Shown: positions 20,943 to 34,125, numbered from the stretch's first letter. The stretch: DNA of 64,000 bases from an uncultured Actinomycetes bacterium (GCA_963704725.1 OY969934.1:512001-576000); one strand, 5' to 3'. Made by a program: numbers and translations. Notes: generated by a model from the sequence alone, not told the origin.

Positions 20943-21999
20943 CGCGAACGCAGCTCGCGGTCCCGTGATCGGCGAACGCCGGCTGTCCCGCCGCCGTCAC
21001 CCACGCCCAGCGATAGCCGTCTGCGCGCAGGACGAGGCGCAGCACGCCGAACGAGTCGGCCTGGGCCACCTGGAGGTCCACGGGCTGCGGTCCCGGTGGG
21101 ATCGCGTAGTGGCTCCGCCCGCCGGTGCCGACGACGAACTCGCGGATGCCGCGGTCCGGGTCGGAGGCGCCGTCGGGATCCTGGGGGGACCACCGCTGGT
21201 AGTTGTGCGAGTGGCCGTTCAGGACGAGGTCGGCGCTCGCGGCGTGCAGGAGCTGCCAGAGCGGCCGGACGGCGCCCGAGGCGCCGCTGCCGGTCGAGAA
21301 GGAGAAGAGCGGGTGGTGCCAGTACGCGATCGTGCACGGGTAGTCGGCGTCCGCGTGGTGTGCGAGGTCTCGCCGCAGCCAGGCGTACATCACGTTGCCC
21401 GGGCCGGGATCGGCGGGGCCCCGGGCGGGGCCGCAACCCCCCGGCGCGAAGCAGAGCTCCGAGTTGAGCGCGACGAGATGCCAGCACGGGGACCCGGGGC
21501 ACGTCCCGAGGTCGAAGGAGTAGAAGCCCAGGCGCTTGGGCCCCTTGACCGCCCGGCCGAAGTAGCGGAAGTACCCGCCCGGGCGCGACGACGGGTCCTG
21601 GCCGTACTCGTGGTTTCCTGGGACCGGGCTGAGGTTCGCGAAGGCCCGACCCCACGTGGAGTCGAAGTACGCCGCGAAGTCGTCGAAGGCGCCGGTCTCG
21701 TACTGGTTGTCGCCGAGCGTGAGGACGCGGTCCAGGTCGCCGCCCGCGATCAGGTCGGCGGTGTCGTCGTACTGACACACGCCCGGCTCGCGGCGGCCGT
21801 TCGGCGGTCCCTGGCAGGAGATGTCGCCGGCGGCGGCGATCACGAGCCGGTCCGCGCTTCGAGCGGCAGCCGCGGGTGCCCCAGCTCCCGCCACGTCGCG
21901 GGGGATCGGCGCCGCGGCATCCCCCGTCGCGGCTCCGAACGCGACGAGCGCGACGAGCGCGACGACCAGTGCCATCGTCCGGCGTGCCGCGCTCACCAC
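20932..21999 (-). CDS. Secreted calcineurin-like metallophosphoesterase
   Basis: Signal peptide; AAGDI, LGDNQY, PGNHEY, WHHP, GHSHNY, VVGTGG. Confidence 0.88.
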   Translation of the reverse strand: MVSAARRTMALVVALVALVAFGAATGDAAAPIPRDVAGAGAPAAAARSADRLVIAAAGDISCQGPPNGRREPGVCQYDDTADLIAGGDLDRVLTLGDNQYETGAFDDFAAYFDSTWGRAFANLSPVPGNHEYGQDPSSRPGGYFRYFGRAVKGPKRLGFYSFDLGTCPGSPCWHLVALNSELCFAPGGCGPARGPADPGPGNVMYAWLRRDLAHHADADYPCTIAYWHHPLFSFSTGSGASGAVRPLWQLLHAASADLVLNGHSHNYQRWSPQDPDGASDPDRGIREFVVGTGGRSHYAIPPGPQPVDLQVAQADSFGVLRLVLRADGYRWAWVTAAGQPAFADHGTASCVRATP

Positions 22000-22400
22000 A
22001 CCCGGAACATCCCCGGGCGGTCGTCCGGGCGCCGGCCGAAGCCGTAGCGCTCGTAGAACCCCTCCGCATCCCGGGCGGCCATCAGCCCGACGAACGCCCC
22101 CGGCCGGGCCACGCGCTGGAGGTAGCCCATCACCCCGCCCATGATCTGCGCGCCGAGGCCGCGCCCGTGGTACTCGGGCACGACGATGACGTCCTGCACG
22201 TAGAAGTACATGCCGCCGTCACCGACCACACGGCCGCAGGCGACGGCCTCGCCCTCGTGCAGGACGACGCAGGCGTACAGGGAGCTCGAGAGGCCGGTCG
22301 CCAGCCCCTCGTCGGTCATCTCGCCCCATCCGGCGGTCTCGCGGAGCCGACGGTACTCGGGCACCGTCGGCGCGCGCTCGACGAGATCGAACTCCTCCAC
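21993..22400 (-). CDS. GNAT family N-acetyltransferase
   Basis: VIVVPEYHGRGLG motif A; FYERYGF. Confidence 0.9.
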   Translation of the reverse strand: MEEFDLVERAPTVPEYRRLRETAGWGEMTDEGLATGLSSSLYACVVLHEGEAVACGRVVGDGGMYFYVQDVIVVPEYHGRGLGAQIMGGVMGYLQRVARPGAFVGLMAARDAEGFYERYGFGRRPDDRPGMFRVW

Positions 22401-22567
22401 GGAGCGTCCAGTGTAGGACCGACGACGGGCGAGCCCACGCCGGCGGTCGTCTCATGCCGTTGCGCACCGTCGCCGCGGGCCGGAGGGCCCTGCCGGGGCC
22501 CCTCCGGCCGAGCCAACGTGAAGGGTCGGACGCAGGAACCAGACCCGCTGATCAAGGAGGAACGTCG

Positions 22568-23080
22568 ATGACACCCGGAGCCAAGACGGTGCACGAGGCA
22601 CACGAGCCGTTCCAGCGGCAGGTGGGCTCGATCCTGGTCCTGGCGGATGCGGTGGGCACCGTGCCGACGGCGGAGCTCGCCCGGCGGACGGGCGAGCTGC
22701 ACGAGTTCCTCGCGCACAGCCTGATGCCGCACGCGCTGGCCGAGGACTCGATCTTCTTCCCTGCACTGCGCCAGGGATCGGACGACCCCCGGACGGTGGC
22801 CATGACGCGCTGTCACCGCCAGCTGGCGCTGTTCACGGACGAGCTCGAGGCGCAGCAGGCCGTCCTGTCCGACCCCGACCGGGCGCGCGACGCGGAACGG
22901 GAGCTCAAGCGGATCCTCTACGGGACCCACGCCCTCCTCACGACCCACTTCGCGGCGGCCGAGGCGGCCTTCACGGACACGCTCGCCGGCAAGCTGTCGC
23001 CGGCGGAACGCGAGGAGCTGTTCGCGCGCATCGACCGCTATGCGGACGACGTCGCCAAGCTCCTCGAGTTCGGCGGCTAG
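22568..23080 (+). CDS. Hemerythrin/HHE-like domain protein
   Basis: SD AAGGAGG; HALAEDSIFFPAL (HxxxE), MTRCH, degenerate HFAAAE. Confidence 0.75.
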   Translation: MTPGAKTVHEAHEPFQRQVGSILVLADAVGTVPTAELARRTGELHEFLAHSLMPHALAEDSIFFPALRQGSDDPRTVAMTRCHRQLALFTDELEAQQAVLSDPDRARDAERELKRILYGTHALLTTHFAAAEAAFTDTLAGKLSPAEREELFARIDRYADDVAKLLEFGG

Positions 23081-23109
23081 CCCCCTCGATCCCGAGCACC
23101 CCCAACGCA

Positions 23110-23150
23110 GGGCCGTTCGGCCCCCTCGACCCGGGACGGTCTTTCGGTCC
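23110..23150. promoter_or_regulatory. DosR/DevR-like palindromic boxes upstream of the dsrE-tusA-hdr operon
   Basis: GGGCC-GTTC-GGCCC (23110-23123) and CGGTC-TTTC-GGTCC (23137-23150); -10-like TACGGT at 23197. Confidence 0.4.
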
Positions 23151-23236
23151 TCGGTCACAGGTTCCGGCTGTCTCCGCGGCCCGCGAGGCGCGCACCTACG
23201 GTGTGAGTCGAACGACATCAACCAGGAGGTGCCGCC

Positions 23237-23602
23237 ATGGCGGACGAGAAGCTCGTGATCATGCTGACGCACGGCCCGCAGGACGCGGAGCTGGCGACGA
23301 TCCCGTTCGTGATGGGGTGCGCCGCGCTGGCCTCGGACGTCGACTGCGTCCTGGGGTTCCAGGCCGACGCGGTCGAGCTCGTCCACGAGGGCATCGCCGA
23401 CAAGGTCGAGGCGCCGGAGTTCCCGCCGCTCGCCACGCTGTTGTCCACGTTCCGTGAGCTGGGCGGGACGCTGCTCGCCTGCAGCCCCTGCCTGAAGAGC
23501 CGCGAGATCCCGGCGGAGGCCCTGGTCGAGGGCACCGAGGTCGTGGCGGCGGCCCGCTTCGTCGTCGAGCTGACGTCGGCGACCAACACGCTCGTCTACT
23601 GA
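23237..23602 (+). CDS. DsrE/DsrF-like sulfur relay protein
   Basis: SD AGGAGG; ATIPFVMG, ACSPCLKSR, C-terminal TLVY. Confidence 0.85.
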   Translation: MADEKLVIMLTHGPQDAELATIPFVMGCAALASDVDCVLGFQADAVELVHEGIADKVEAPEFPPLATLLSTFRELGGTLLACSPCLKSREIPAEALVEGTEVVAAARFVVELTSATNTLVY

Positions 23603-23632
23603 GGCTCCGCGCGACCACGAAGGAGGAACGAC

Positions 23633-23899
23633 ATGAGCATCGTGCTGACCGAGACGGACCTGTCCGGCATCGAGGCCGGCAAGGTCGTCGACGCCCGTGG
23701 CAGCGCCTGCCCGGGCCCGCTGCTGGAGGCGAAGAAGGGCATCGGCGCCGTGGCCATCGGCCAGGTCCTCGAGATCTGGTCCGGCGACCCGCAGACGAAG
23801 TCGGACATCGAGACCTGGGCCGGCAAGGTCGGGCACGGGTTCCTCGGGGTCGCTCCCGCCGACGGCTACGACCGCATCTTCGTGCGACGGGCCAAGTGA
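23633..23899 (+). CDS. tusA: TusA family sulfur carrier
   Basis: DARGSACPGPLL (CPxP), GQVLEIWSGDP. Confidence 0.9.
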   Translation: MSIVLTETDLSGIEAGKVVDARGSACPGPLLEAKKGIGAVAIGQVLEIWSGDPQTKSDIETWAGKVGHGFLGVAPADGYDRIFVRRAK

Positions 23900-23934
23900 C
23901 CACCCACCGGACCGCGGGAAGAGGGTGAAGCCGC

Positions 23935-24378
23935 GTGTCCGCCGCCCGTGAGGCGGAGGAGACCCCGACCAGGCTGCTGGTCCTGGCCTCGCTCCTGTGC
24001 GCCTACCCCGGGATCGACTCGACCGGGCAGGCGCACATGGACTACCCGGCGAACACGTACGTGCTGCCGACGCCCGATCCGGTCATGTTCCCCGAGACCT
24101 TCTACCTGTACTGCTTCGATCACGGCGTCGACGGGATCCTGATCGCGTCCTGCGGGACCGACAGCCCCTACGAGGGCGCGTACGAGCAGCTCGCGGCCCG
24201 GATCGATCACGTGTACGTCCGGATGAAGGAGCGCGGGCTCGACGTCCGGCGGCTGAAGCTGACGGCGATCTGCAGCGTGTGCTCGAAGGCGTTCGTCAAG
24301 GAGGTCGGCGATCTCGCGGCGCTCGTCGCCGAGCTCGGCCCGGCATGCGACGAGATGCGGGAGGCGGTGCCGGCGTGA
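23935..24378 (+). CDS. MvhD/FlpD-like iron-sulfur subunit (atypical cysteine pattern)
   Basis: CAYPGIDSTGQAHMDYP, GVDGILIASC, RLKLTAICSVC. Confidence 0.8.
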   Translation: MSAAREAEETPTRLLVLASLLCAYPGIDSTGQAHMDYPANTYVLPTPDPVMFPETFYLYCFDHGVDGILIASCGTDSPYEGAYEQLAARIDHVYVRMKERGLDVRRLKLTAICSVCSKAFVKEVGDLAALVAELGPACDEMREAVPA

Positions 24379-25700
24379 GCGACGGCTCGCCGAGGCGGAT
24401 CGAGACCGACGTCCTCGTGATCGGCGCGGGCATCGCCGGCCTCCAGGCCTCCCTCGACCTGGCCGACCAGGGCCACGGTGTCCTGCTCGTCGAGCGCGAG
24501 GCGAGCATCGGGGGCCGGATGATCGCGCTGTCCAAGGTCTTCCCGACCATGGACTGCTCGAGCTGTATCACCACGCCGAAGATGTCGGCGGCGGCCCACC
24601 ACGAGGGCGTGGCCACGCTCACGTACACCGACGTCGAATCGCTCGAGCCGGCGGGAGACGGGTTCGACGCCACGCTCGTCCGCCGGCCGCGGTACGTGGA
24701 CGAGGACGCGTGCATCGGCTGCCGCCTGTGCGAGTACGCCTGCCCGGTCGACGTGCCGCACGAGTTCGACGGCCAGCTGGGGGCGCGGCGCGCCATCTAC
24801 ATCCCGTTCGGCACGGCGATCCCGCAGAAGGCGGTCGTCGACCTGCCGAACTGCATCCTTTGCGGCAAGTGCGAGAAGGCGTGCCCCACGGACGCCCTCG
24901 ACTTCACGCAGGAGCCGGAGACCATCCTGGTGCACGCGTGCGCGGCGGTCCTCACCACGGGCTTCCGGCCCACGCCCACGGGCGCGAAGCGCGAGTACGG
25001 CGGGGGGGTCGCGGCGAACGTGATCTCCGGCCTCGACATGGAACGCTTGCTGTCGCCGAACGGCCCGTACGGCCGGGTGCTTCGCCCCTCGGACGGCAAG
25101 ATCCCCGAACGCATCGCCTACGTGCAGTGCGCGGGATCGCGGGACGAGACGCTCGGCGTCCCGTACTGCTCACGCGTGTGCTGCATGTACGCGATCAAGC
25201 AGTCGATGCTCCTGTCGGGCGCCCTGCCGCTGGCAGACATCACGATCTACTACATGGACATCCGCGCGTTCGGGAAGGGCTACGAGGAGTTCTTCCAGAC
25301 CGCGCGGGCCATGGGCATCGAGTTCGTCAAGGCCAAGGTGGCGCGGATCGAAGAGATCCCCGGCGGCGATCTCCGGCTCCGCGTCGAGCTGCAGGAGGAG
25401 GACGGCCGGATCGCCGACGCCGAGCACGACCTCGTGGTCCTCTCGGTCGGGATCCAGCCCTCGGGCGACGTCCGGCGGTTCGCGCCGGTGGCGACCGACG
25501 CCTACGGGTTCGTCCGCTCGCTCGATCCGGCGCTCGACGTGACGAGCACCGACGTGCCGGGCCTGTTCGCCGCCGGCACGGCCCTCGCCCCGAAGGACAT
25601 CGTCGACACGGTGGCCGAGGCGAGCGCGGTGGCGGTCCGGGTCTCGGGGTACCTGCGAAGAGCGGAGTCGAGGCCGCTCGTGGGGGCGTCCCATGCCTGA
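24375..25700 (+). CDS. HdrA/QmoA-like flavoprotein with inserted 2x[4Fe-4S] ferredoxin
   Basis: GAGIAG, KVFPTMDCSSC, CIGCRLCEYACP, CILCGKCEKACP, CAGSRD..YCSRVCCMYAIKQ, YMDIRAFGKGYEEF. Confidence 0.93.
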   Translation: MSDGSPRRIETDVLVIGAGIAGLQASLDLADQGHGVLLVEREASIGGRMIALSKVFPTMDCSSCITTPKMSAAAHHEGVATLTYTDVESLEPAGDGFDATLVRRPRYVDEDACIGCRLCEYACPVDVPHEFDGQLGARRAIYIPFGTAIPQKAVVDLPNCILCGKCEKACPTDALDFTQEPETILVHACAAVLTTGFRPTPTGAKREYGGGVAANVISGLDMERLLSPNGPYGRVLRPSDGKIPERIAYVQCAGSRDETLGVPYCSRVCCMYAIKQSMLLSGALPLADITIYYMDIRAFGKGYEEFFQTARAMGIEFVKAKVARIEEIPGGDLRLRVELQEEDGRIADAEHDLVVLSVGIQPSGDVRRFAPVATDAYGFVRSLDPALDVTSTDVPGLFAAGTALAPKDIVDTVAEASAVAVRVSGYLRRAESRPLVGASHA

Positions 25701-27534
25701 GTGCCGGATCGGCGTCTACGTCTGTCACTGCGGCGGCAACATCAGCGACGTCGTCGACGTGCAGGCCGTGGCGGACCGTGCCGGCGCGGACGACGAGGTG
25801 GTCGTGGCCCGGCACCTCCCGTTCATGTGCTCCGACGAGGGCCAGTCCTCGATCGAGAAGGACGTCGAGGAGCTCGGGCTCGACCGGGTCGTGGTCGCCG
25901 CCTGCACCCCGAGCCTGCACGAGACGACGTTCCGCCGCGCGGTGTCCCGAGCCGGGCTGAACCCGTACCTGTACCAGCACGCCAACATCCGCGAGCAGGT
26001 GAGCTGGGCGCACGTCCACGACCACGCCGCCGCGACGGACAAGGCCGATCGCATCGTGCGGGCCGCCGTGGCCAAGGCATCGGCGCTCCGCGCCCTGGAC
26101 CGCGTGCGGGTCGCGGCCGTGCATCGCGCCCTGGTGGTCGGCGGCGGCGTGGCGGGGCTCCGGGCCGCGATCGACGTCGCGAGTCGGGGCATGGAGGTCG
26201 TCCTCGTCGAGCGCAGCGCGACGCTCGGCGGGCACGCGCTCCGGCTCGGCCGCGCCTATCCGACCGACGAGCCCGGGCGGGACCTGGTCGCGAGGCTCGT
26301 CGAGGCGATCCGGGCCGAACCGCTGATCGACGTCCGGCTCACCACCGAGGTCGTCGGGGTGAGCGGGTACGTGGGCGACTTCCGCGTCGAGGTGCGATCG
26401 GTCGATCCGAGCCGCAACGGGGACGCGAGGACCGAGGAGGTCGAGGTCGGGGCGATCGTGCTCGCGACCGGGTTCCGTGACTACGAGCCGGCCGAGGGGG
26501 AGTACGGAACGGGGTCCCCGCGCGTCATGACGCTGGCCGCCTACCAGGAGCGCCTGTTCTCCTGCCCCGCGGACGCCGATCTCGGGGCGGTGCTCGGGCT
26601 CGAAGGACCGGTACGCTCGGTCGCCTTCCTCCACTGCGTGGGCAGCCGGCAGGTCGCCGGCGTCGACGAGGTCACGGGAGAGCTCAACGCGTACTGCTCG
26701 CGCGTGTGCTGCACGGCCACGGTCCGGGCGGCGGCCGGGACACGCCGCCGCTTCCCCGGCGTCCGGGTGGTCGACGTCTACCGGGACATCCGGACCTACG
26801 CGCGCGACCAGGAGGCGGCGTACCGGGAGGCCGGCGAGGCCGGGGTCCTGTTCGTGCGGCTCCCCTCGGACGAACGCGCCCGGGTCGAGGCCGCCCCCGG
26901 GGACGATGTCTATCCACTGGTGGTCCGGGCCCGCGACACGCTCACGTTCGGGGCGGAGCTGGAGGTGCCCGTCGACCTCGTCGTGCTGGCCACGGCCATG
27001 GAGCCCGGTGGAGCGGAGCAGCTCGTCGCGATGACCAAGGCGCCCATCGGCGCCGACGGGTTCCTGTTGGAGGTCCACCCCAAGCTCCGCCCGGTCGAGA
27101 GCGCGATCCCAGGGATCCTGCTCGCCGGGACGGCCCGCGGCCCGATGGACATCACCGAGAGCACGACCTCGGCCTCGGCGGCCGCGGCCAAGGTGGCGAC
27201 GCTCCTGGCGCGCGATCACGTCGAGATGGAGCCGTTCGTGGCGCGGGTCGACCCGTCCCGGTGCACGGGTAGCGGGTCGTGCGTTCCGGCGTGTCACTAC
27301 GCCGGCGCGATCGGGCTCCAGGAGGTCGAGCTCGAGGACGGCGTCGTCGCGAAGCGGGCCTACGTGAACCCGGTCGCGTGCAAGGGCTGCGGCGCGTGCG
27401 TGGCGGCGTGCCCGAACGGCGCGATCGACGTCCAGGGATGGGAGATCGGGCAGTACCTCGCCATGGTCGACGCGATCACGAGCGAGCCGCCTGTCGTTCC
27501 GGCGAACGAGGTGGCGGAGGCGGTGACGGCATGA
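25693..27534 (+). CDS. HdrA/QmoB-like flavoprotein with N-terminal Fe-S domain and C-terminal ferredoxin
   Basis: CHCGGNI..FMC..ACTP..HE, ANIREQ, GGGVAG, HCVGSR..YCSRVCC, HPKLRPVE, CTGSGSCVPAC, CKGCGACVAACP. Confidence 0.93.
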   Translation: MPECRIGVYVCHCGGNISDVVDVQAVADRAGADDEVVVARHLPFMCSDEGQSSIEKDVEELGLDRVVVAACTPSLHETTFRRAVSRAGLNPYLYQHANIREQVSWAHVHDHAAATDKADRIVRAAVAKASALRALDRVRVAAVHRALVVGGGVAGLRAAIDVASRGMEVVLVERSATLGGHALRLGRAYPTDEPGRDLVARLVEAIRAEPLIDVRLTTEVVGVSGYVGDFRVEVRSVDPSRNGDARTEEVEVGAIVLATGFRDYEPAEGEYGTGSPRVMTLAAYQERLFSCPADADLGAVLGLEGPVRSVAFLHCVGSRQVAGVDEVTGELNAYCSRVCCTATVRAAAGTRRRFPGVRVVDVYRDIRTYARDQEAAYREAGEAGVLFVRLPSDERARVEAAPGDDVYPLVVRARDTLTFGAELEVPVDLVVLATAMEPGGAEQLVAMTKAPIGADGFLLEVHPKLRPVESAIPGILLAGTARGPMDITESTTSASAAAAKVATLLARDHVEMEPFVARVDPSRCTGSGSCVPACHYAGAIGLQEVELEDGVVAKRAYVNPVACKGCGACVAACPNGAIDVQGWEIGQYLAMVDAITSEPPVVPANEVAEAVTA

Positions 27535-27854
27535 CGGGGCCCGAGACCGAGGTCGAGGCGACCGAGCCCAAGAAGAAGCCCGGCACGATCGGGGCGTACA
27601 AGCAGCGCCACGGACCGGCCTCGCCGGAGCTGCTCGAGCGGGTCCGCGTGCAGAACCACGTGAAGGCCGCGGTGCGCCGCGCGCTCGCCGCCGGCCCGCT
27701 CACGCCGCCGGAGGTCGCCGCGGCCGCGGAGATCTCGCCTCGGGAGGCGCTGTGGACCCTCATCGCGATGCGCAAGTACGGCGTCGTCGTCGAGAACGGA
27801 CAGGAGGGCGACTACGTTCGGTACGCGCTCTCCGGAAAGGACCCGCGCGCATGA
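27531..27854 (+). CDS. Small winged-helix protein embedded in the hdr operon
   Basis: ATGA overlaps at both ends; GPLTPPEVAAAAEISPREALWTLIAMRKYG plus beta-wing. Confidence 0.7.
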   Translation: MTGPETEVEATEPKKKPGTIGAYKQRHGPASPELLERVRVQNHVKAAVRRALAAGPLTPPEVAAAAEISPREALWTLIAMRKYGVVVENGQEGDYVRYALSGKDPRA

Positions 27855-29059
27855 GCGTGGCCGTGGAGGAGCAGCGAGCGCCGGCCGTCAGGATCGGCGA
27901 GAGCCTGATCCCCGAGCTCGAGCGATTCGGGGCCGTCGATGTCTCGGCGTGCTTCAACTGCGGGACCTGCTCGGCCGTGTGTCCCATCGCCGAGGACGAC
28001 GGGGCGTTCCCGCGCCGGATCATCCGCTTCGCGCAGCTCGGCATGCGAGACCAGCTCCTGGCGAGCCACGAGCTCTGGACCTGCTACGGCTGCGCCGAGT
28101 GCACGGAGTCGTGTCCGCGGCAGGCGGATCCCGCCGGGTTCATGGGGGCCGCCCGCAGCTACGCGATCGCGAGCTACGACCGGACCGGCCTCGCCCGGCG
28201 CCTCGCGACCTCCGTCCCGTTCGCGGGCATCTTCATCGGGCTCCTCGTCCTGGTCCTGGCGTCGTTCATGTATACGGCGCATCAGCCGGTGCACGGCTCC
28301 GAGCTCGCCTTCTTCGAGTACGTCCCCGCCTCGTACATCCACGAATTCGGGCTCGTCGTGTTCGGGCTGTTCGGCGTCGCAACCGTCGCAGGCCTCGTGC
28401 AGATGATCCGTCACGTGACCGGGCCGGCGCGCCGGGACGACGCCCCGGACCCGGCCGGCGCCGGCATGGTCGAGGCGGTGCGCTACTCGGTGGTCCAGGA
28501 GTCGCTCGGCCAGCGGCGCTTCCGCGAGGAATGCGCCGACGATCCCGAGGCGTCGGCCCGGCCCTGGTACCTGCGGCGTTGGTTCGTGCACGCCGCGACC
28601 ATGTGGGGCTTCCTCGGCCTTCTCGGGGCCACGCTCGCCGACTTCGCCCTCGAGCTCACGGGCGTGAAGCCGACCGGGACGCAGGTGCCGGTCTGGTATC
28701 CGGTCCGGCTGCTCGGGACCCTCGCCGGCCTGCTTCTCGTGTATGGGACGACGATGATGATCCTCCGCCGGGCCCGCGGTACCGACCGGTCGTCCGCGAG
28801 GTCCACGGTGTGGGACTGGTCGTTCCTGTGGATGCTGTGGGTCGCCGGCCTGTCCGGGTTCGCCCTGGAGCTGGCGCTCTACCTTCCGAGGGCTCCCTCG
28901 TGGGGATACACGACCTTCCTGCTCCACGTCGGCGTGGCGATGGCGCTGGTCCTGCTGGCGCCATTCAGCAAGTTCGCGCACGCGATCTACCGGCCGGTCG
29001 CGCTCGCGGTCTTCCGTCTGCGCGGGGGCGGCCGCTCGCGCGACTCCGCGACCCGCTGA
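27851..29059 (+). CDS. QmoC-like membrane subunit (HdrC-type 2x[4Fe-4S] plus cytochrome b-type TM domain)
   Basis: CFNCGTCSAVCP, CYGCAECTESCPR; several TM helices with His in IHEF, FVHA, LLHV and PFSKFAHAIYRP. Confidence 0.88.
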   Translation: MSVAVEEQRAPAVRIGESLIPELERFGAVDVSACFNCGTCSAVCPIAEDDGAFPRRIIRFAQLGMRDQLLASHELWTCYGCAECTESCPRQADPAGFMGAARSYAIASYDRTGLARRLATSVPFAGIFIGLLVLVLASFMYTAHQPVHGSELAFFEYVPASYIHEFGLVVFGLFGVATVAGLVQMIRHVTGPARRDDAPDPAGAGMVEAVRYSVVQESLGQRRFREECADDPEASARPWYLRRWFVHAATMWGFLGLLGATLADFALELTGVKPTGTQVPVWYPVRLLGTLAGLLLVYGTTMMILRRARGTDRSSARSTVWDWSFLWMLWVAGLSGFALELALYLPRAPSWGYTTFLLHVGVAMALVLLAPFSKFAHAIYRPVALAVFRLRGGGRSRDSATR

Positions 29060-29063
29060 TCCG

Positions 29064-29630
29064 TCACCCGGCCGGCCGCTCGAGCCCATCGAGCGAGCGG
29101 ACCAGGAGCCGCAAGAGCTGCACCCGCTCGCTGGGGGTGAGCGCGCCGAAGAGCTCGGCGTTGGCACGCTCGCTCACCCTCGCTCGCGCGCGCAGCGCGC
29201 GCCGACCGTCCTTCGTCAGATCCAGCGCGTAGCGGCGCCGGTCGCGCTGGTCGCGCCGGCGCTCGACGAAGCCGGCCGCCTCGAGCCAGTCGACGAACGC
29301 GACCAGGTCGCTCGGGTCGAAGCGGAGCCGCTCGCTGGTCTCTCGCTGGCTGGACACTCCGAACTCCTCGAGGCAGGCGAGGATCGCGAAGTGCGGGAAG
29401 CGCATCTGCTCCGCGGGATCCGCGGCCTCGGCGATGCGTTGCTGTCCGAGTCGGAACGCCTGGCGCATCAGCAGGAACATGACGGCGCTCGGGTACCGCA
29501 GCAGGCTCGCCGGGTACTCGAGGGGCGACTCGCCGGGCGAGGCCATCCGCAGGCCCTTGATCGCGCGACGGCGCATCCTCGGGCCCGGACCGACCGCCGA
29601 CTCCGGCGGGGTGGCGGGGTTGACACGCAT
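29064..29630 (-). CDS. MarR family transcriptional regulator
   Basis: SQRE..ERL..DPS, LEAAGFVERRRDQRDRRRYALDLTKDG. Confidence 0.9.
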   Translation of the reverse strand: MRVNPATPPESAVGPGPRMRRRAIKGLRMASPGESPLEYPASLLRYPSAVMFLLMRQAFRLGQQRIAEAADPAEQMRFPHFAILACLEEFGVSSQRETSERLRFDPSDLVAFVDWLEAAGFVERRRDQRDRRRYALDLTKDGRRALRARARVSERANAELFGALTPSERVQLLRLLVRSLDGLERPAG

Positions 29631-29640
29631 GGGAACCCAT

Positions 29641-29680
29641 CCTTATCGTGGGTGATACCCATGATTTACCACGATCAAGG
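29641..29680. promoter_or_regulatory. Putative MarR operator (nested inverted repeats)
   Basis: ATCGTGGGT-GAT-ACCCATGAT (29645-29665) inside CCTTATCGTGG...CCACGATCAAGG. Confidence 0.5.
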
Positions 29681-30707
29681 TTCCGGCGCCACCGCGGAGG
29701 GTCCCGAACCGGGCGCCGAAGCCGCCGCCGGTGGCGAGCCCGTGATCTCGGTCCGGGGGCTGGAGAAGCGATTCGGCGAGCTGGTCGCGGTGGCCGGCGT
29801 CGACTTCGAGGTCTACCGGGGCGAGACGTTCGGGTTCCTCGGCCCCAACGGCGCCGGCAAGACGACGACGATCAACATGCTCTGCACGCTCGCGACGCCC
29901 ACCGCCGGCGCCGCGACCGTGGCCGGGTTCGACGTCCTGCGCGAGCGGGACGAGGTCCGGCGGAGCATCGGGCTCGTGTTCCAGGACACGACGCTCGACT
30001 CCTACCTTACGGCCGAGCGGAACCTGCGCTTCCACGCCGAGCTCTACGGCGTCCCCCGCGCCGAGATCGAGCCGCGGCTGAAGCAGGTCATGGAGATCGT
30101 CGGGCTGTGGGACCGGCGGGGAAGCAAGGTCATGGAGTACTCGGGCGGCATGATGCGCCGGCTCGAGATCGCGCGCGGGCTGCTGCACTACCCGCGCGTG
30201 CTGTTCCTCGACGAGCCCACGATCGGCCTGGACCCGCAGACGCGGTCGCACATCTGGACCTACATCTCGGACCTGAAGAAGCGCGAGGACATCACGATCT
30301 TCCTGACCACGCACTACATGGACGAGGCGGAGAACTGCGACCGCATCGCGATCATCGACAACGGCAGGATCGTGGCGCTCGAGACGCCCGAGGCGCTGAA
30401 GGCGAGCATCGGCAAGGATCGGGTCCAGATCCAGACCCCGGACGACGAGGCGACGATCGCCGCGCTCCGCGACCGGTTCGGGCTCGAGGCCGGCGTGCAC
30501 GAGGACGCCGTCACCTTCTCGGTGGAGTCGGGCGAGCAGTTCGTCCCGCGCCTGTTCGCCGAGCTCGGGATCCCCATCCAGGCCGTGCGGGTGTCCCGGC
30601 CCACCCTGGACGACGTGTTCATGTCGTACACGGGCAAGACGATCCGCGACGCGGAAGGGGAGAACCCGCTCCGGGCCATGGTCAAGGCGTTCCGAAGGAG
30701 GCGGTGA
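29661..30707 (+). CDS. DrrA-type ABC exporter ATP-binding protein
   Basis: [40 protein letters not shown]; start may be GTG 29742. Confidence 0.93.
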
Positions 30708-31594
30708 GGGTGGCCACGGAGACCGCGCGGCGACCGGAGCCGATCGCCTCCGAGGGCCCGGTCCGGGCCGCCCGCCGGGGCCTCGCGCACGAGTTCCGGG
30801 GAGCCAAGATCGTGTGGCACCGCGAGATGATCCGGTTCTGGGAGGACCGCTCGCGGCTGGTGGTGTCGCTCCTTCAGCCGGTGCTCTTCCTGTTCGTCCT
30901 TGGCACCGGCCTGTCGTCGCTGGTCTCCGGAGGGACCGGTGGGCTGTCCCTGCGCACGTTCCTGTTCCCCGGCGTGCTGGCGATGTCCACGATGTTCACG
31001 GCCATGTTCTCCGCCGCCTCCCTGGTCTGGGATCGCGAGTTCGGGTTCCTGCGCGAGATGCTCGTGGCGCCGGTGGGGCGCGGCGCGATCGTGGTCGGCA
31101 AGGCGCTGGGCGGTGCGACGGTGGCCACGGTGCCCGGGGTCGTCATGCTCGCGTTCGCCGGCGCCGTTGGGGTGCCCTACGACCCGGTGTTGTTCGTGAC
31201 CCTGGTCGTCGAGCTGCTCCTGCTTTCGTTCGTCCTGACCACGGTGGGTATCGCGGTGGCCGGTCGTATCAAGCAGATCCAGTCGTTCATGGCGCTCACC
31301 CAGATGTTCCTGATGCCGATGCTGTTCCTGTCGGGTGCCATGTTCCCGCTGTCGAACCTGCCGGGCTGGCTCCACGTGCTGACCCGGATCAACCCGCTCA
31401 CGTACGCCGTGGACCCGATGCGCCGGGCGGTGTTCTCGCACCTCGACGTCTCCGCCGCCGTCCGGGACACCCTGAGCCCCGGCGTGACCTGGGGGTCCAA
31501 GGTCGTGCCCGTCGGCCTCGAGCTGCTGCTCGTCCTGCTGATGGGGGTCGGCCTGCTCGCCGTCGGCATCGCCGAGTTCCGCCGCGCGGAGTAG
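30704..31594 (+). CDS. ABC-2 type exporter permease (DrrB-like)
   Basis: [31 protein letters not shown]. Confidence 0.92.
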
Positions 31595-31674
31595 GGCACC
31601 CCTCGCCGCCGGGACAAGGTCGGGCCGATCGGGCGGTATCCTCCCGGCAAACCCTCGCACAAGGACGGGATCCC

Positions 31675-34125
31675 ACGCGCTTCGGACACTTCGACGACGA
31701 CGAGCGCGAGTACGTCGTCTCGCAGCCGGATACACCGCTCCCTTGGATCAACTACCTGGGGAGCGAGGAGTTCTTCGGCATCATCTCCAACACCGCGGGC
31801 GGCTACGCCTTCTACCGAGACGCCCGGCTGCGCAGGCTGACGAGGTTCCGGTACAACGCGCCGGGCGACGGGGGTGGGCGATACCTGTACGTGCGGGACG
31901 ATGAGACCGGGGACTACTGGTCGCCGTCGTGGCAGCCCACGCAGAGTGACCTCGAGGACTACCGGTGCCGGCACGGGCTCGGCTACACGGTGATCGGCTC
32001 CCGCCGCAGGGGGATCGAGGCCGAGACCTGGTACCTCGTCCCGCTCGGCGAGACGCTCGAGATCTGGAAGACCTCCATCACGAACCACCGTGACGCCCCG
32101 GCCCGACTGTCGCTGTTCAGCGGGGTCGAGTTCTGTCTGTGGGACGCGCTGGACGACGCGACGAACTTCCAGCGCAACTACTCCGTGGGCGAGGTGGAGG
32201 TCGACGGCGGGGTCATCTTCCACAAGAGCGAGTACCGGGAGCGCCGGAACCACTTCGCGTACTTCGCGTGCTCGGCCGAGGTGGCGGGGTTCGACACACA
32301 GCGCGAGGCGTTCCTCGGACCCTACCGAGGGTGGGATCGGCCGCTCGTCGTGGAGACCGGGCGTTCGGGGGGCTCGATCGCCCACGGGTGGGCGCCGATC
32401 GGCTCGCACCACGTGGAGCTCGCGCTCGAGCCGGGCCAGACGCGCGACGTGGTCTTCCTCCTTGGCTATGCGGAGAACCCGGCCGACGAGAAGTTCGACC
32501 CACCGGGGTCGCAGACGATCGACACGCATCGCGTCCGCCCTGTGATCGACCGATACCTGCGGACCGAGGAGGTCGTCCGAGCGATCGGGCGGATCCAGGA
32601 CCGGTGGTCCCAGCTCCTGGAAGCGATGCAGGTCGCCACCCCGAGCGAGCACGTCGACCGCATGGTGAACGTGTGGAACGCGTACCAATGCATGGTGACC
32701 TTCAACCTGTCGCGGTCGGCCTCATCGTTCGAGTCGGGGATCGGGCGGGGGATGGGGTTCCGCGACTCGACCCAGGACCTCCTGGGCTTCGTCCACATGG
32801 TTCCCGATCGCGCGCGGGAGCGGATCCTGGACATCGCGGCCACGCAGCTTCCGACGGGCGGCGCCTACCACCAGTACCAGCCGCTCACGAAGCGCGGGAA
32901 CGACGCCGTCGGCTCCGGTTTCAACGACGATCCGCTGTGGCTGGTGCTCGCGGTCGCCGCGTACCTCAAGGAGACGGGCGACCGGTCGATCCTGGACGAG
33001 GCCGTGCCGTTCGACAACGCGCCCGGATCGGAGGCCCCGCTCCTGGACCACCTGCGGCGCTCCATCGCGTACACGCTCGAGCGCCTCGGTCCGCACGGCC
33101 TGCCGTTGATCGGCCGGGCCGACTGGAACGACTGCCTGAACCTGAACTGCTTCTCGGAGACGCCGGGCGAGTCCTTCCAGACCACCGAGAACCGCGAGGG
33201 TGGGGTCGCCGAGTCGGTGTTCATCGCCGGGCTGTTCGCGCTGGCCGCCGAGGAGATCGCGCAGATCGCCGAGCGCGAGGGGTTGGGCGAGGAGGCCGTC
33301 GAGTATCGAGCCGCTCGCGAACGCATGGCCGCCGCCGTCCGGGACCACGGCTGGGACGGCGAGTGGTTCCGTCGCGCCTACGACTACTTCGGGCGGCCCG
33401 TCGGATCGTCCGAGAACGCGGAGGGCCGCATCTTCATCGAGCCCCAGGGGATGTGCGTGATGGCCGGCCTCGGGCTCGAGGACGGCACCGCCGAGGCGGC
33501 GCTGGCGTCGGTGGAAGAGCACCTGGCGACGCCGCACGGCCTCATGCTGCTCCAGCCGGCCTTCACTCGGTACCACCTCGAGCTCGGCGAGATCGGTTCG
33601 TACCCCCCCGGCTACAAGGAGAACGCCGGGATCTTCTGCCACACCAACCCGTGGGTGATGATCGCGGAGACCCTGGTCGGAAACGGGGATCGCGCGTTCG
33701 ACTACTACCTGCGCATCAACCCGTCGGCGCGGGAGGACCTGAGCGAGGTCCATAGGTGCGAGCCCTACGTCTACGCGCAGATGATCGCGGGCAAGGACGC
33801 GCCCGTCCACGGCGAGGCCAAGAACTCCTGGCTCACGGGGACGGCGGCCTGGAACTTCGTGGCCGTCACGCAGTGGATCCTCGGCATCCGCCCCGAGCAC
33901 GACGGGTTGCGGGTCGACCCATGTGTCCCGGCGGACTGGAATGGATTCCGCGTGTGGAGGCGTCGCTTCCGGGGGGCGATCTACGACATCACGGTGCGGG
34001 TACGGCGCGAGGGCGGCGGGCGCACGTCCCACCTCGTGGTCGACGACCGCCGGATCGAGGGCACGCTGATCCCGCCGGCTCCTCCCGGAGCTCGGGTCAC
34101 GGTGATGGCGACGATCGAGCGATAG
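31675..34125 (+). CDS. GH94 cellobiose phosphorylase; start codon appears as ACG
   Basis: (T)[72 protein letters not shown]. Confidence 0.9.

Follow-up and report, generated by a model that had tools for sequence, protein, structure and literature searches.

Anaerobic energy conservation relies centrally on Hdr- and Qmo-type complexes, of which the known ones, to our knowledge, touch sulfur only through HdrB or through adenosine 5'-phosphosulfate (APS) reductase. What, then, might a Qmo/Hdr-type gene set do that lies beside genes for the sulfur carriers TusA and DsrE, with neither of these enzymes next to it? The question is raised by a locus at 22568-29059 of a 64,000-nucleotide stretch of DNA from an uncultured Actinomycetes bacterium (GCA_963704725.1 OY969934.1:512001-576000; hereafter the window), which corresponds to positions 512001-576000 of a single-contig 3.45-Mb genome and has a GC fraction of 0.67-0.76. 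This locus is confirmed as an intact member of a widespread, sulfur-carrier-linked family of Qmo/Hdr-type modules, in its short, ferredoxin-type form. The functional reading that we favour, and hold to be about as likely as not, is that the operon encodes a membrane-anchored complex acting on carrier-bound sulfane sulfur, a reversible and possibly bifurcating persulfide/sulfide-menaquinone-ferredoxin oxidoreductase that works without an HdrB-type subunit.

The operon and its conserved partners

The original prediction, which was made from the sequence alone, described a co-oriented run of eight genes with overlapping start and stop codons from mvhD through qmoC, and both statements were borne out: seven of the products have Pfam matches and the remaining small protein is recognized by its fold. 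All eight genes lie on the + strand, framed by a GNAT gene (21993-22400, - strand) and a MarR gene (29064-29630, - strand), as follows (aa, amino acids).

22568-23080, + strand: hemerythrin-domain protein, 170 aa (PF01814, E 9.6e-8, scored on a longer open reading frame (ORF) from 22454)
23237-23602, + strand: DsrE-family sulfur carrier, 121 aa (PF02635, E 2.9e-11)
23633-23899, + strand: TusA sulfur carrier, 88 aa (PF01206, E 5.9e-18)
23935-24378, + strand: MvhD-like protein, 147 aa (PF02662, E 3.4e-14)
24375-25700, + strand: HdrA1, 441 aa, flavin adenine dinucleotide (FAD) and Fer4 domains; best NCBIfam matches are HdrA models
25693-27534, + strand: HdrA2, 613 aa, FAD and Fer4 domains; best NCBIfam matches are HdrA models
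27531-27854, + strand: small winged-helix protein, 107 aa (predicted fold)
27851-29059, + strand: QmoC-like subunit, 402 aa (Fer4 families and the NarI-like PF02665)

The four start/stop overlaps that run from the mvhD-like to the qmoC-like gene consist of a GTGA at 24375-24378 (mvhD-like/HdrA1), 8 nt at 25693-25700 (HdrA1/HdrA2) and an ATGA on either side of the winged-helix gene, at 27531-27534 and 27851-27854. The hemerythrin start at 22568 had also been placed correctly, being an ATG behind an AGGAGG. The dsrE gene likewise begins with an ATG preceded by AGGAGG, after a gap of 156 nt, because of which the hemerythrin gene is possibly a separate transcription unit.

To place this operon among its relatives, 80 loci were retrieved from species-representative genomes by means of a QmoC-like alignment and scored by tblastn with the proteins of the window; 19 of them, with less than 6.5 kb of upstream DNA, were left out, and the counts given here cover the other 61. 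TusA and the MvhD-like protein are each present in 58 of these loci, HdrA1 in 59 and an HdrA2-type protein in 60, and the winged-helix gene was scored in 43, an undercount given how short the query is; an adjacent HdrB was found in none of the 61. Among the 58 TusA-bearing loci, a DsrE or DsrE2-type gene lies within 4 kb in 56 (four DsrE-family queries), and an ArsR-type regulator accompanies 37 and a rhodanese 9. Five loci are flanked by a CoA-disulfide-reductase/rhodanese fusion. The same order of genes recurs in more than ten phyla, the carriers including Chloroflexota, Actinomycetota, Acidobacteriota, Bacteroidota, Gemmatimonadota, Armatimonadota, Bathyarchaeia and others. Linkage to the carriers, on which the original prediction had been staked as a refutation test, is therefore strongly conserved (TusA 58/61, DsrE-family 56/58). 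The prediction is to be amended in two details: a DsrE-family gene is nearly constant, but the type found in the window is one of two interchangeable partners and alternates with DsrE2-type; and the hemerythrin gene, which does belong to the run at this locus, occurs within 4 kb of the module in only 14/58 TusA-bearing loci and is an occasional accessory.

The three loci without TusA differ from one another. One (L066) carries the QmoC-like gene alone and another (L097) has it beside a divergent hdrCBA-mvhDGA set. The third, from a metagenome-assembled genome (MAG) of the Planctomycetales (L080:3260-11143), encodes an HdrA2-type protein, mvhD, an unannotated gap of the size of mvhG, mvhA, HdrA1, the winged-helix protein and the QmoC-like subunit. 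It is a hydrogenase-fed version of the same core, and the presence of hydrogenase genes in place of tusA and the mvhD-like gene suggests that electrons enter or leave the complex on the TusA side.

A further variant concerns HdrA1, which in 28/61 loci is a long form of about 906 aa where Fer4_20 and an NAD(P)-binding Pyr_redox_2 domain replace the ferredoxin insert (for instance L054:5291-8014, L031:5300-8020, L074:5201-7921 and L035:5303-8011). At L054 a DsrE2-type gene sits between the mvhD-like gene and that for long HdrA1. Two Thermoleophilia MAGs hold a second, convergent paralogous module (L092:15562-21124 and L099:14476-20199, minus strand) that comprises TusA, MvhD-like, HdrA1, HdrA2 and winged-helix proteins, with a short HdrC-like match in place of the full QmoC-like subunit.

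Independence from known sulfur pathways was addressed in 50 carrier genomes chosen from 61 TusA-bearing loci; since these are MAGs of unknown completeness, absence is to be read as 'not found'. AprA was detected in 6/50 and DsrA in 6/50, and neither was found in the bacterium's own genome, where AprA gave no match above cut-off and searches for DsrA and DsrC returned none; the module is thus independent of the Apr and Dsr pathways. A large subunit of an Mvh-like hydrogenase was found in 30/50 carrier genomes, the other 20 having no such match.

Separation from related complexes

The locus had been said to fit neither canonical QmoABC-AprAB nor HdrABC-MvhAGD nor sHdr-LbpA, and this description stands, the module having fallen outside each system when tested for membership. 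With canonical QmoABC of sulfate reducers and green sulfur bacteria it shares two HdrA-related flavoproteins, an MvhD-type module and an HdrC-like two-cluster domain fused to a NarI-like dihaem domain. It differs in that MvhD is a separate upstream gene rather than the C-terminal domain of QmoB, in its extra winged-helix gene, and in having tusA and dsrE as partners whereas the canonical partner is aprBA. The QmoC-like protein matches the qmoC model NF038018 from end to end at 200.6 bits, below the 300-bit cut-off. That two distinct systems are involved is illustrated by the genomes G002 and G003, each of which holds a canonical aprBA-qmoABC locus (AprA 850 and 877 bits, QmoC 309.8 and 356.4 bits) in addition to a TusA-linked module, whose QmoC-like proteins score 181.3 and 192.4 bits. 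Among 41 genomes of the order of G002, canonical QmoC was found in one, G002 itself.

Phylogenetic trees give the same partition. In a quick maximum-likelihood tree of QmoC-type proteins (77 rows), 4 canonical QmoC split from 73 module rows with 100% support, and in a quick tree of the shared flavin core (71 rows) the 5 QmoA and 5 QmoB sequences fall together in a clade (99% support) that excludes the other 61 rows, which comprise 29 module HdrA1, 30 module HdrA2 (including the HdrA of L080) and two hydrogenase-linked HdrA. Forcing HdrA1 together with QmoA cost 41 log-likelihood units and was rejected by the approximately unbiased test (p-AU 0.015), the groups for the constraint tests having been named after the tree was seen. 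Canonical grouping together with an hdrB elsewhere in the genome had been named as a refuting outcome; an HdrB is indeed encoded elsewhere, but the module proteins lie outside the canonical Qmo clades.

The methanogen HdrABC-MvhAGD complex (PDB 5odc, 8rvu) resembles the module in both HdrA paralogues, in the MvhD-like fold and in HdrC, which the QmoC-like N-terminus matches. However, the module lacks HdrB with its two CCG domains and has no hydrogenase in the operon, it has two complementary HdrA paralogues where the methanogen complex has a single full-length, four-domain HdrA, and it possesses a membrane anchor and an altered MvhD cysteine pattern. The sHdr-LbpA system of Hyphomicrobium denitrificans and others has TusA and DsrE-family carriers next to Hdr-like proteins, as described in the available parts of PMC11094781 and PMC6067878, and this is the point of resemblance; unlike it, the module has no sHdrB1/B2, sHdrC or nearby lipoate-binding protein, and sHdr in turn is not known to have a membrane dihaem subunit. 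HdrL from Desulfobacterium autotrophicum, which is an HdrA with a fused, NAD(P)H-binding GltD-like module according to the accessible text of PMC12142623 and PMC2702500, may be likened by description to long HdrA1, where Fer4_20 and Pyr_redox_2 are inserted in HdrA, whereas the HdrA1 of the window is of the short form with a ferredoxin insert.

The nearest published counterpart is only the 'type II' QmoABC set apart by Neukirchen et al. 2023 (PMC10504309), with Ammonifex degensii and 'Ca. Vulcanisaeta moutnovskia' as examples, the role of which is not established there. In the portion of that paper available to us, type II Qmo is reported from organisms that possess Apr and Dsr as well as from others that lack them, its QmoAB-like proteins lie nearer to HdrA than to the QmoAB of bacteria, and linkage to TusA/DsrE is not mentioned. 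The HdrA paralogues of the module also fall on the HdrA side of the tree, which is a likeness by description. Other papers, as far as their available parts go, concern other systems, that is canonical Qmo, the YTD cluster, type II sHdr and HdrL with formate dehydrogenase (PMC12142623, PMC4911364, PMC8528874, PMC6776052, PMC13490349, PMC13293266, PMC8780430). No description of a TusA-MvhD-HdrA-HdrA-QmoC operon was found in the literature searched; the HdrA-module review of Appel et al. 2021 may bear on it.

The rest of the genome

The window had been described as free of hdrB, aprAB, sat and lipoyl genes, and whole-genome family searches agree with this. As for hydrogenase, none was seen among selected ORFs of 13183-43551 in the Pfam run, the rest of the window being unscanned for it. 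At the scale of the genome the picture derived from the window holds in part. Four CCG-domain proteins are encoded, all outside 512001-576000; no HdrB lies beside the module, but, against the impression gained from the window, a complete hdrC-hdrB-hdrA-mvhD-mvhG-mvhA locus is present at 2,473,440-2,479,939 (L017:7440-13939), the remaining three CCG-domain proteins being located elsewhere. This locus represents a group-3c-type [NiFe] hydrogenase with heterodisulfide reductase in a sugar-degrading, high-GC genome. AprA and DsrA, as stated, were not found, and a single ATP sulfurylase gene (sat) exists at 691,922; it adjoins a PAPS-reductase-family gene (cysH) and is for that reason read as assimilatory and was rejected as a dissimilatory marker. 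No lipoate-binding protein is encoded near the module, the sole GcvH-type (GCV_H) gene lying at 1,999,984, 1.4 Mb from the locus.

Elsewhere in the genome, at about 3320200-3323300 (L019:6193-9312), a gene like that for type III sulfide:quinone reductase (SQR), which scores 367 bits to NF049943, below cut-off, accompanies genes of the DsrE2 type and for TusA. A second sulfane-sulfur set is thereby indicated, and sulfane sulfur is plausibly formed in this organism. A TusA-DsrE2 pair is also found at about 96900-100100 (L020:4936-8144), some 2 kb from genes for nickel superoxide dismutase and its signal-peptidase-like maturation.

Anatomy of the module proteins

The carriers retain the residues of their families. 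TusA matches PF01206 with 64.9 bits against a cut-off of 28.6 and has its active-site cysteine in a Cys-Pro-Gly-Pro motif, in keeping with the Cys-Pro-x-Pro pattern of the family; D20, A21, R22, C26, P27, G28 and P29 are invariant in 46 aligned sequences. In DsrE, C82 and C85 are conserved in 13/13 aligned orthologues.

The AlphaFold model of the MvhD-like protein (predicted local distance difference test, pLDDT, 89) superposes on chain D of 5odc, the MvhD of the Hdr/hydrogenase complex, with a template-modelling (TM) score of 0.84-0.89 and a root-mean-square deviation of 1.8 Å. In sequence it is only 25% identical to the canonical MvhD of the same genome and is without the cysteine pattern of the latter, which we take to bind the iron-sulfur cluster of MvhD. 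The sole cysteine pair conserved among MvhD-like copies is a C-terminal C-x-x-C (C113/C116), present in 49/51 copies and absent from the genome's canonical MvhD; the two copies without it are a broken one (L029) and the hydrogenase-linked MvhD of L080.

HdrA1 and HdrA2 are both similar to methanogen HdrA (E 1e-109 to 1e-122) and carry complementary halves of it. HdrA1 aligns to HdrA residues 146-569 (5odc chain A), that is, the flavin core of thioredoxin-reductase type with the inserted two-cluster ferredoxin domain, and has neither the N-terminal nor the C-terminal domain. HdrA2 aligns to residues 1-235 and 324-656, thus possessing the N-terminal cluster domain, the flavin core and the C-terminal ferredoxin domain, and its alignment skips the inserted ferredoxin domain. 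A heterodimer would in consequence have each accessory domain of HdrA once: the N-terminal domain that docks MvhD, the ferredoxin domain at the C-terminus and the inserted ferredoxin domain. All cluster cysteines are invariant within each paralogue, with 14 invariant cysteines in 16 short-form HdrA1 orthologues and 15 in 29 HdrA2 orthologues. A D-C-x-x-C motif beside the flavin fold separates the two, occurring in 16/16 short and 13/13 long HdrA1 and in 0/29 HdrA2.

The QmoC-like subunit joins an HdrC-like part, which bears two 4Fe-4S motifs, to a NarI-like membrane domain, and it has about six hydrophobic segments. Its eight cluster cysteines are conserved in 68-69 of 69 copies, and of its histidines H247, H359 and H377 are found in 69/69 and H164 in 64/69. 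The 107-aa protein, which is translationally coupled through the overlaps on both sides, contains no cysteine and has no match in Pfam or NCBIfam. Its model (pLDDT 85) adopts a winged-helix fold whose nearest solved structures in Foldseek are of the ArsR/SmtB/SqrR/MarR type, a weak similarity (E about 5e-4, TM about 0.5). A profile built on it recovers 509 representative clusters at E <= 0.001 and 335 at E <= 1e-10, all of them small stand-alone proteins.

Proposed function and competing explanations

The proposed function as a quinone-linked, possibly bifurcating oxidoreductase fits this predicted anatomy. The complex would be composed of an asymmetric HdrA1/HdrA2 heterodimer, the MvhD-like adaptor and the QmoC-like subunit, served by TusA and DsrE. 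Sulfane sulfur would be loaded via DsrE and held as a persulfide on TusA, to be interconverted with sulfide at the MvhD-like/HdrA entry point or close to it, and electrons would cross the flavins and iron-sulfur clusters of HdrA by two paths. On the first they would leave the C-terminal ferredoxin domain of HdrA2 and reach menaquinone by way of the HdrC-like domain and the two haems b in the QmoC-like subunit; on the second they would pass from the inserted ferredoxin domain of HdrA1 to ferredoxin, the place of this domain being taken in the long variant of other genomes by the inserted NAD(P)-binding module. That hydrogenase replaces TusA and the MvhD-like protein at L080 fits the idea of this position as that of a variable redox partner. 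The assignment of the paths follows the methanogen Hdr structure of Wagner et al. 2017, in which the N-terminal domain of HdrA reportedly takes electrons from MvhD, the C-terminal ferredoxin domain is said to lead to HdrC and the inserted domain to ferredoxin. The midpoint potential of sulfur/sulfide is about -270 mV, that of menaquinone about -74 mV and that of ferredoxin about -450 mV. Since the sulfur couple thus lies roughly midway between the other two, reversible bifurcation would be thermodynamically plausible. The existence of one complex, its substrate, its direction and its bifurcation are all things that we infer from gene content, motifs, folds and linkage.

Several points weigh against this proposal. 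No sulfur-redox site could be recognized in any subunit (neither a CCG/HdrB domain nor molybdopterin nor sirohaem), and the C-x-x-C of the MvhD-like protein is only a candidate for such a site. The copy in the window is without an ArsR gene, and the Mvh-like hydrogenase of 30/50 carrier genomes means that a partner could be encoded elsewhere. In addition, the trees come from quick searches and contain few sequences of canonical Qmo, 4-5 for each subunit, and the roles of the HdrA domains as well as the redox-potential argument are presumed from the methanogen Hdr literature.

Among the alternatives, the operon may be a 'type II' Qmo that feeds or drains an enzyme encoded elsewhere, such as the genome's HdrBC or another reductase, TusA and DsrE doing no more than supplying that partner. 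Its architecture does mirror QmoA, QmoB and QmoC, the own genome holds hdrCBA-mvhDGA, the QmoC-like gene stands beside hdr/mvh genes in L080 and L097, Mvh-like hydrogenase is frequent among the carrier genomes (30/50), and type II Qmo is itself reported with and without Apr and Dsr (PMC10504309, in its available part). Yet HdrB is adjacent in 0/61 loci, the hdr/mvh locus comes with an HdrA and an MvhD of its own, AprA was found neither in this genome nor in 44/50 carriers, 20/50 carriers have no Mvh-like match, and no partners are constant apart from TusA and DsrE-family genes; on this evidence we regard the explanation as quite improbable. The same constancy bears on the suggestion that the complex is a ferredoxin or NAD(P)H/menaquinone bi- or confurcating enzyme for redox balancing, with TusA and DsrE as sulfane-sulfur sensors, regulators or maintenance factors instead of substrates. 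TusA with an invariant active-site cysteine is kept in 58/61 loci, and the accompanying DsrE-family, rhodanese and ArsR-type genes form a pattern of sulfur trafficking rather than of a sensor, which makes this suggestion unlikely, even though all the electron-transfer elements are present without a sulfur-specific catalytic site and L080 has HdrA1, winged-helix and QmoC-like genes beside an HdrA2-type gene and hydrogenase genes, with no TusA.

A different cargo has also to be considered, in that the carriers could deliver thiosulfonate, derived from thiosulfate or tetrathionate, or a low-molecular-weight persulfide, and the complex could reduce that adduct. No thiosulfate/tetrathionate enzymes or YeeE-type importers occur among the conserved flanking clusters, and we hold this to be decidedly improbable in spite of the CoA-disulfide-reductase/rhodanese fusions that flank five loci and of the DsrE3A and TusA of Metallosphaera, which carry thiosulfate according to the accessible part of PMC4175335. 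Finally, a chance neighbourhood or a decaying remnant without joint function might be suspected from the sporadic occurrence of the module in this lineage (0/13 congeners, 2/36 in the family); it is already very unlikely in view of intact frames, overlapping genes, conserved cofactor residues and the same gene order across more than ten phyla.

The persulfide/sulfide-menaquinone-ferredoxin reading can be taken a step further, to a new class of HdrB-independent sulfur oxidoreductase in which the MvhD-like C-x-x-C would take the persulfide of TusA and HdrA1/HdrA2 would bifurcate to menaquinone and to ferredoxin or NAD(P). We put this forward tentatively and consider it somewhat unlikely. If it were true, many heterotrophs of soil, freshwater and gut would couple sulfane sulfur to the quinone pool by an energy-conserving link that has gone unrecognized. 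The importance of the family lies in Qmo-like wiring tied to TusA and DsrE in genomes most of which have no Dsr or Apr match; should carrier-bound sulfane sulfur be turned over by it, genome-based surveys of sulfur cycling would be overlooking a common route, and the module would offer a compact model for asymmetric flavin-based bifurcation.

Distribution and probable movement of the module

Within its own lineage the module is rare, the QmoC-like gene being found in 0/13 other genomes of the genus, 2/36 genomes of the family and 0/24 genomes of other families in the order. The two same-family relatives carry the short form with the hemerythrin gene downstream of the qmoC-like gene; their seven module proteins are 65-84% identical to those of the window and the hemerythrin is 43% identical, and no synteny of the flanks was found between the window and these two relatives. 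The QmoC-like protein, HdrA1 and HdrA2 of the window each group with Chloroflexota copies with 100% support, and joining the window's QmoC-like protein to the main clade of 14 Actinomycetes rows was rejected (p-AU 8e-10; this group, too, was named after the tree was seen). The base composition of the cassette does not stand out from the genome. The cassette was probably acquired horizontally in this genome, as judged from the sequence comparisons. This copy contributes the short, ferredoxin-type form in a finished genome, a true hdr/mvh locus that lies apart from it and serves for comparison, and evidence of movement between phyla.

Surroundings of the operon

A scan of 21900-29800 for promoters and terminators returned no terminator and a single promoter-like site, which was assigned to the ABC transporter nearby; the result tells nothing about the operon. 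No inverted repeats were found in the gap ahead of dsrE (23060-23250), and two were found in the intergenic gap between the GNAT and hemerythrin genes. A 13-nt, GC-rich inverted repeat, 92% complementary and with its arms 6 nt apart, lies between these two genes at 22478-22509. The MarR gene (29064-29630, - strand) is convergent with the qmoC-like gene and divergent from an ABC-transporter gene, upstream of which the only promoter-like site of the scan is located (entry 29620-29649, + strand). This gene was considered as the regulator of the operon and rejected, being convergent with the operon and paired with the ABC transporter; it is thus probably not the operon's regulator.

The genes that flank the operon encode sugar transporters, glycoside hydrolases (GH) and regulators. 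Among them is a large GH94-family phosphorylase gene (30814-34125, a 1103-aa ORF), situated amid sugar ABC-transporter and GH3/GH4 genes, and this set is consistent with a carbohydrate-degrading lifestyle.

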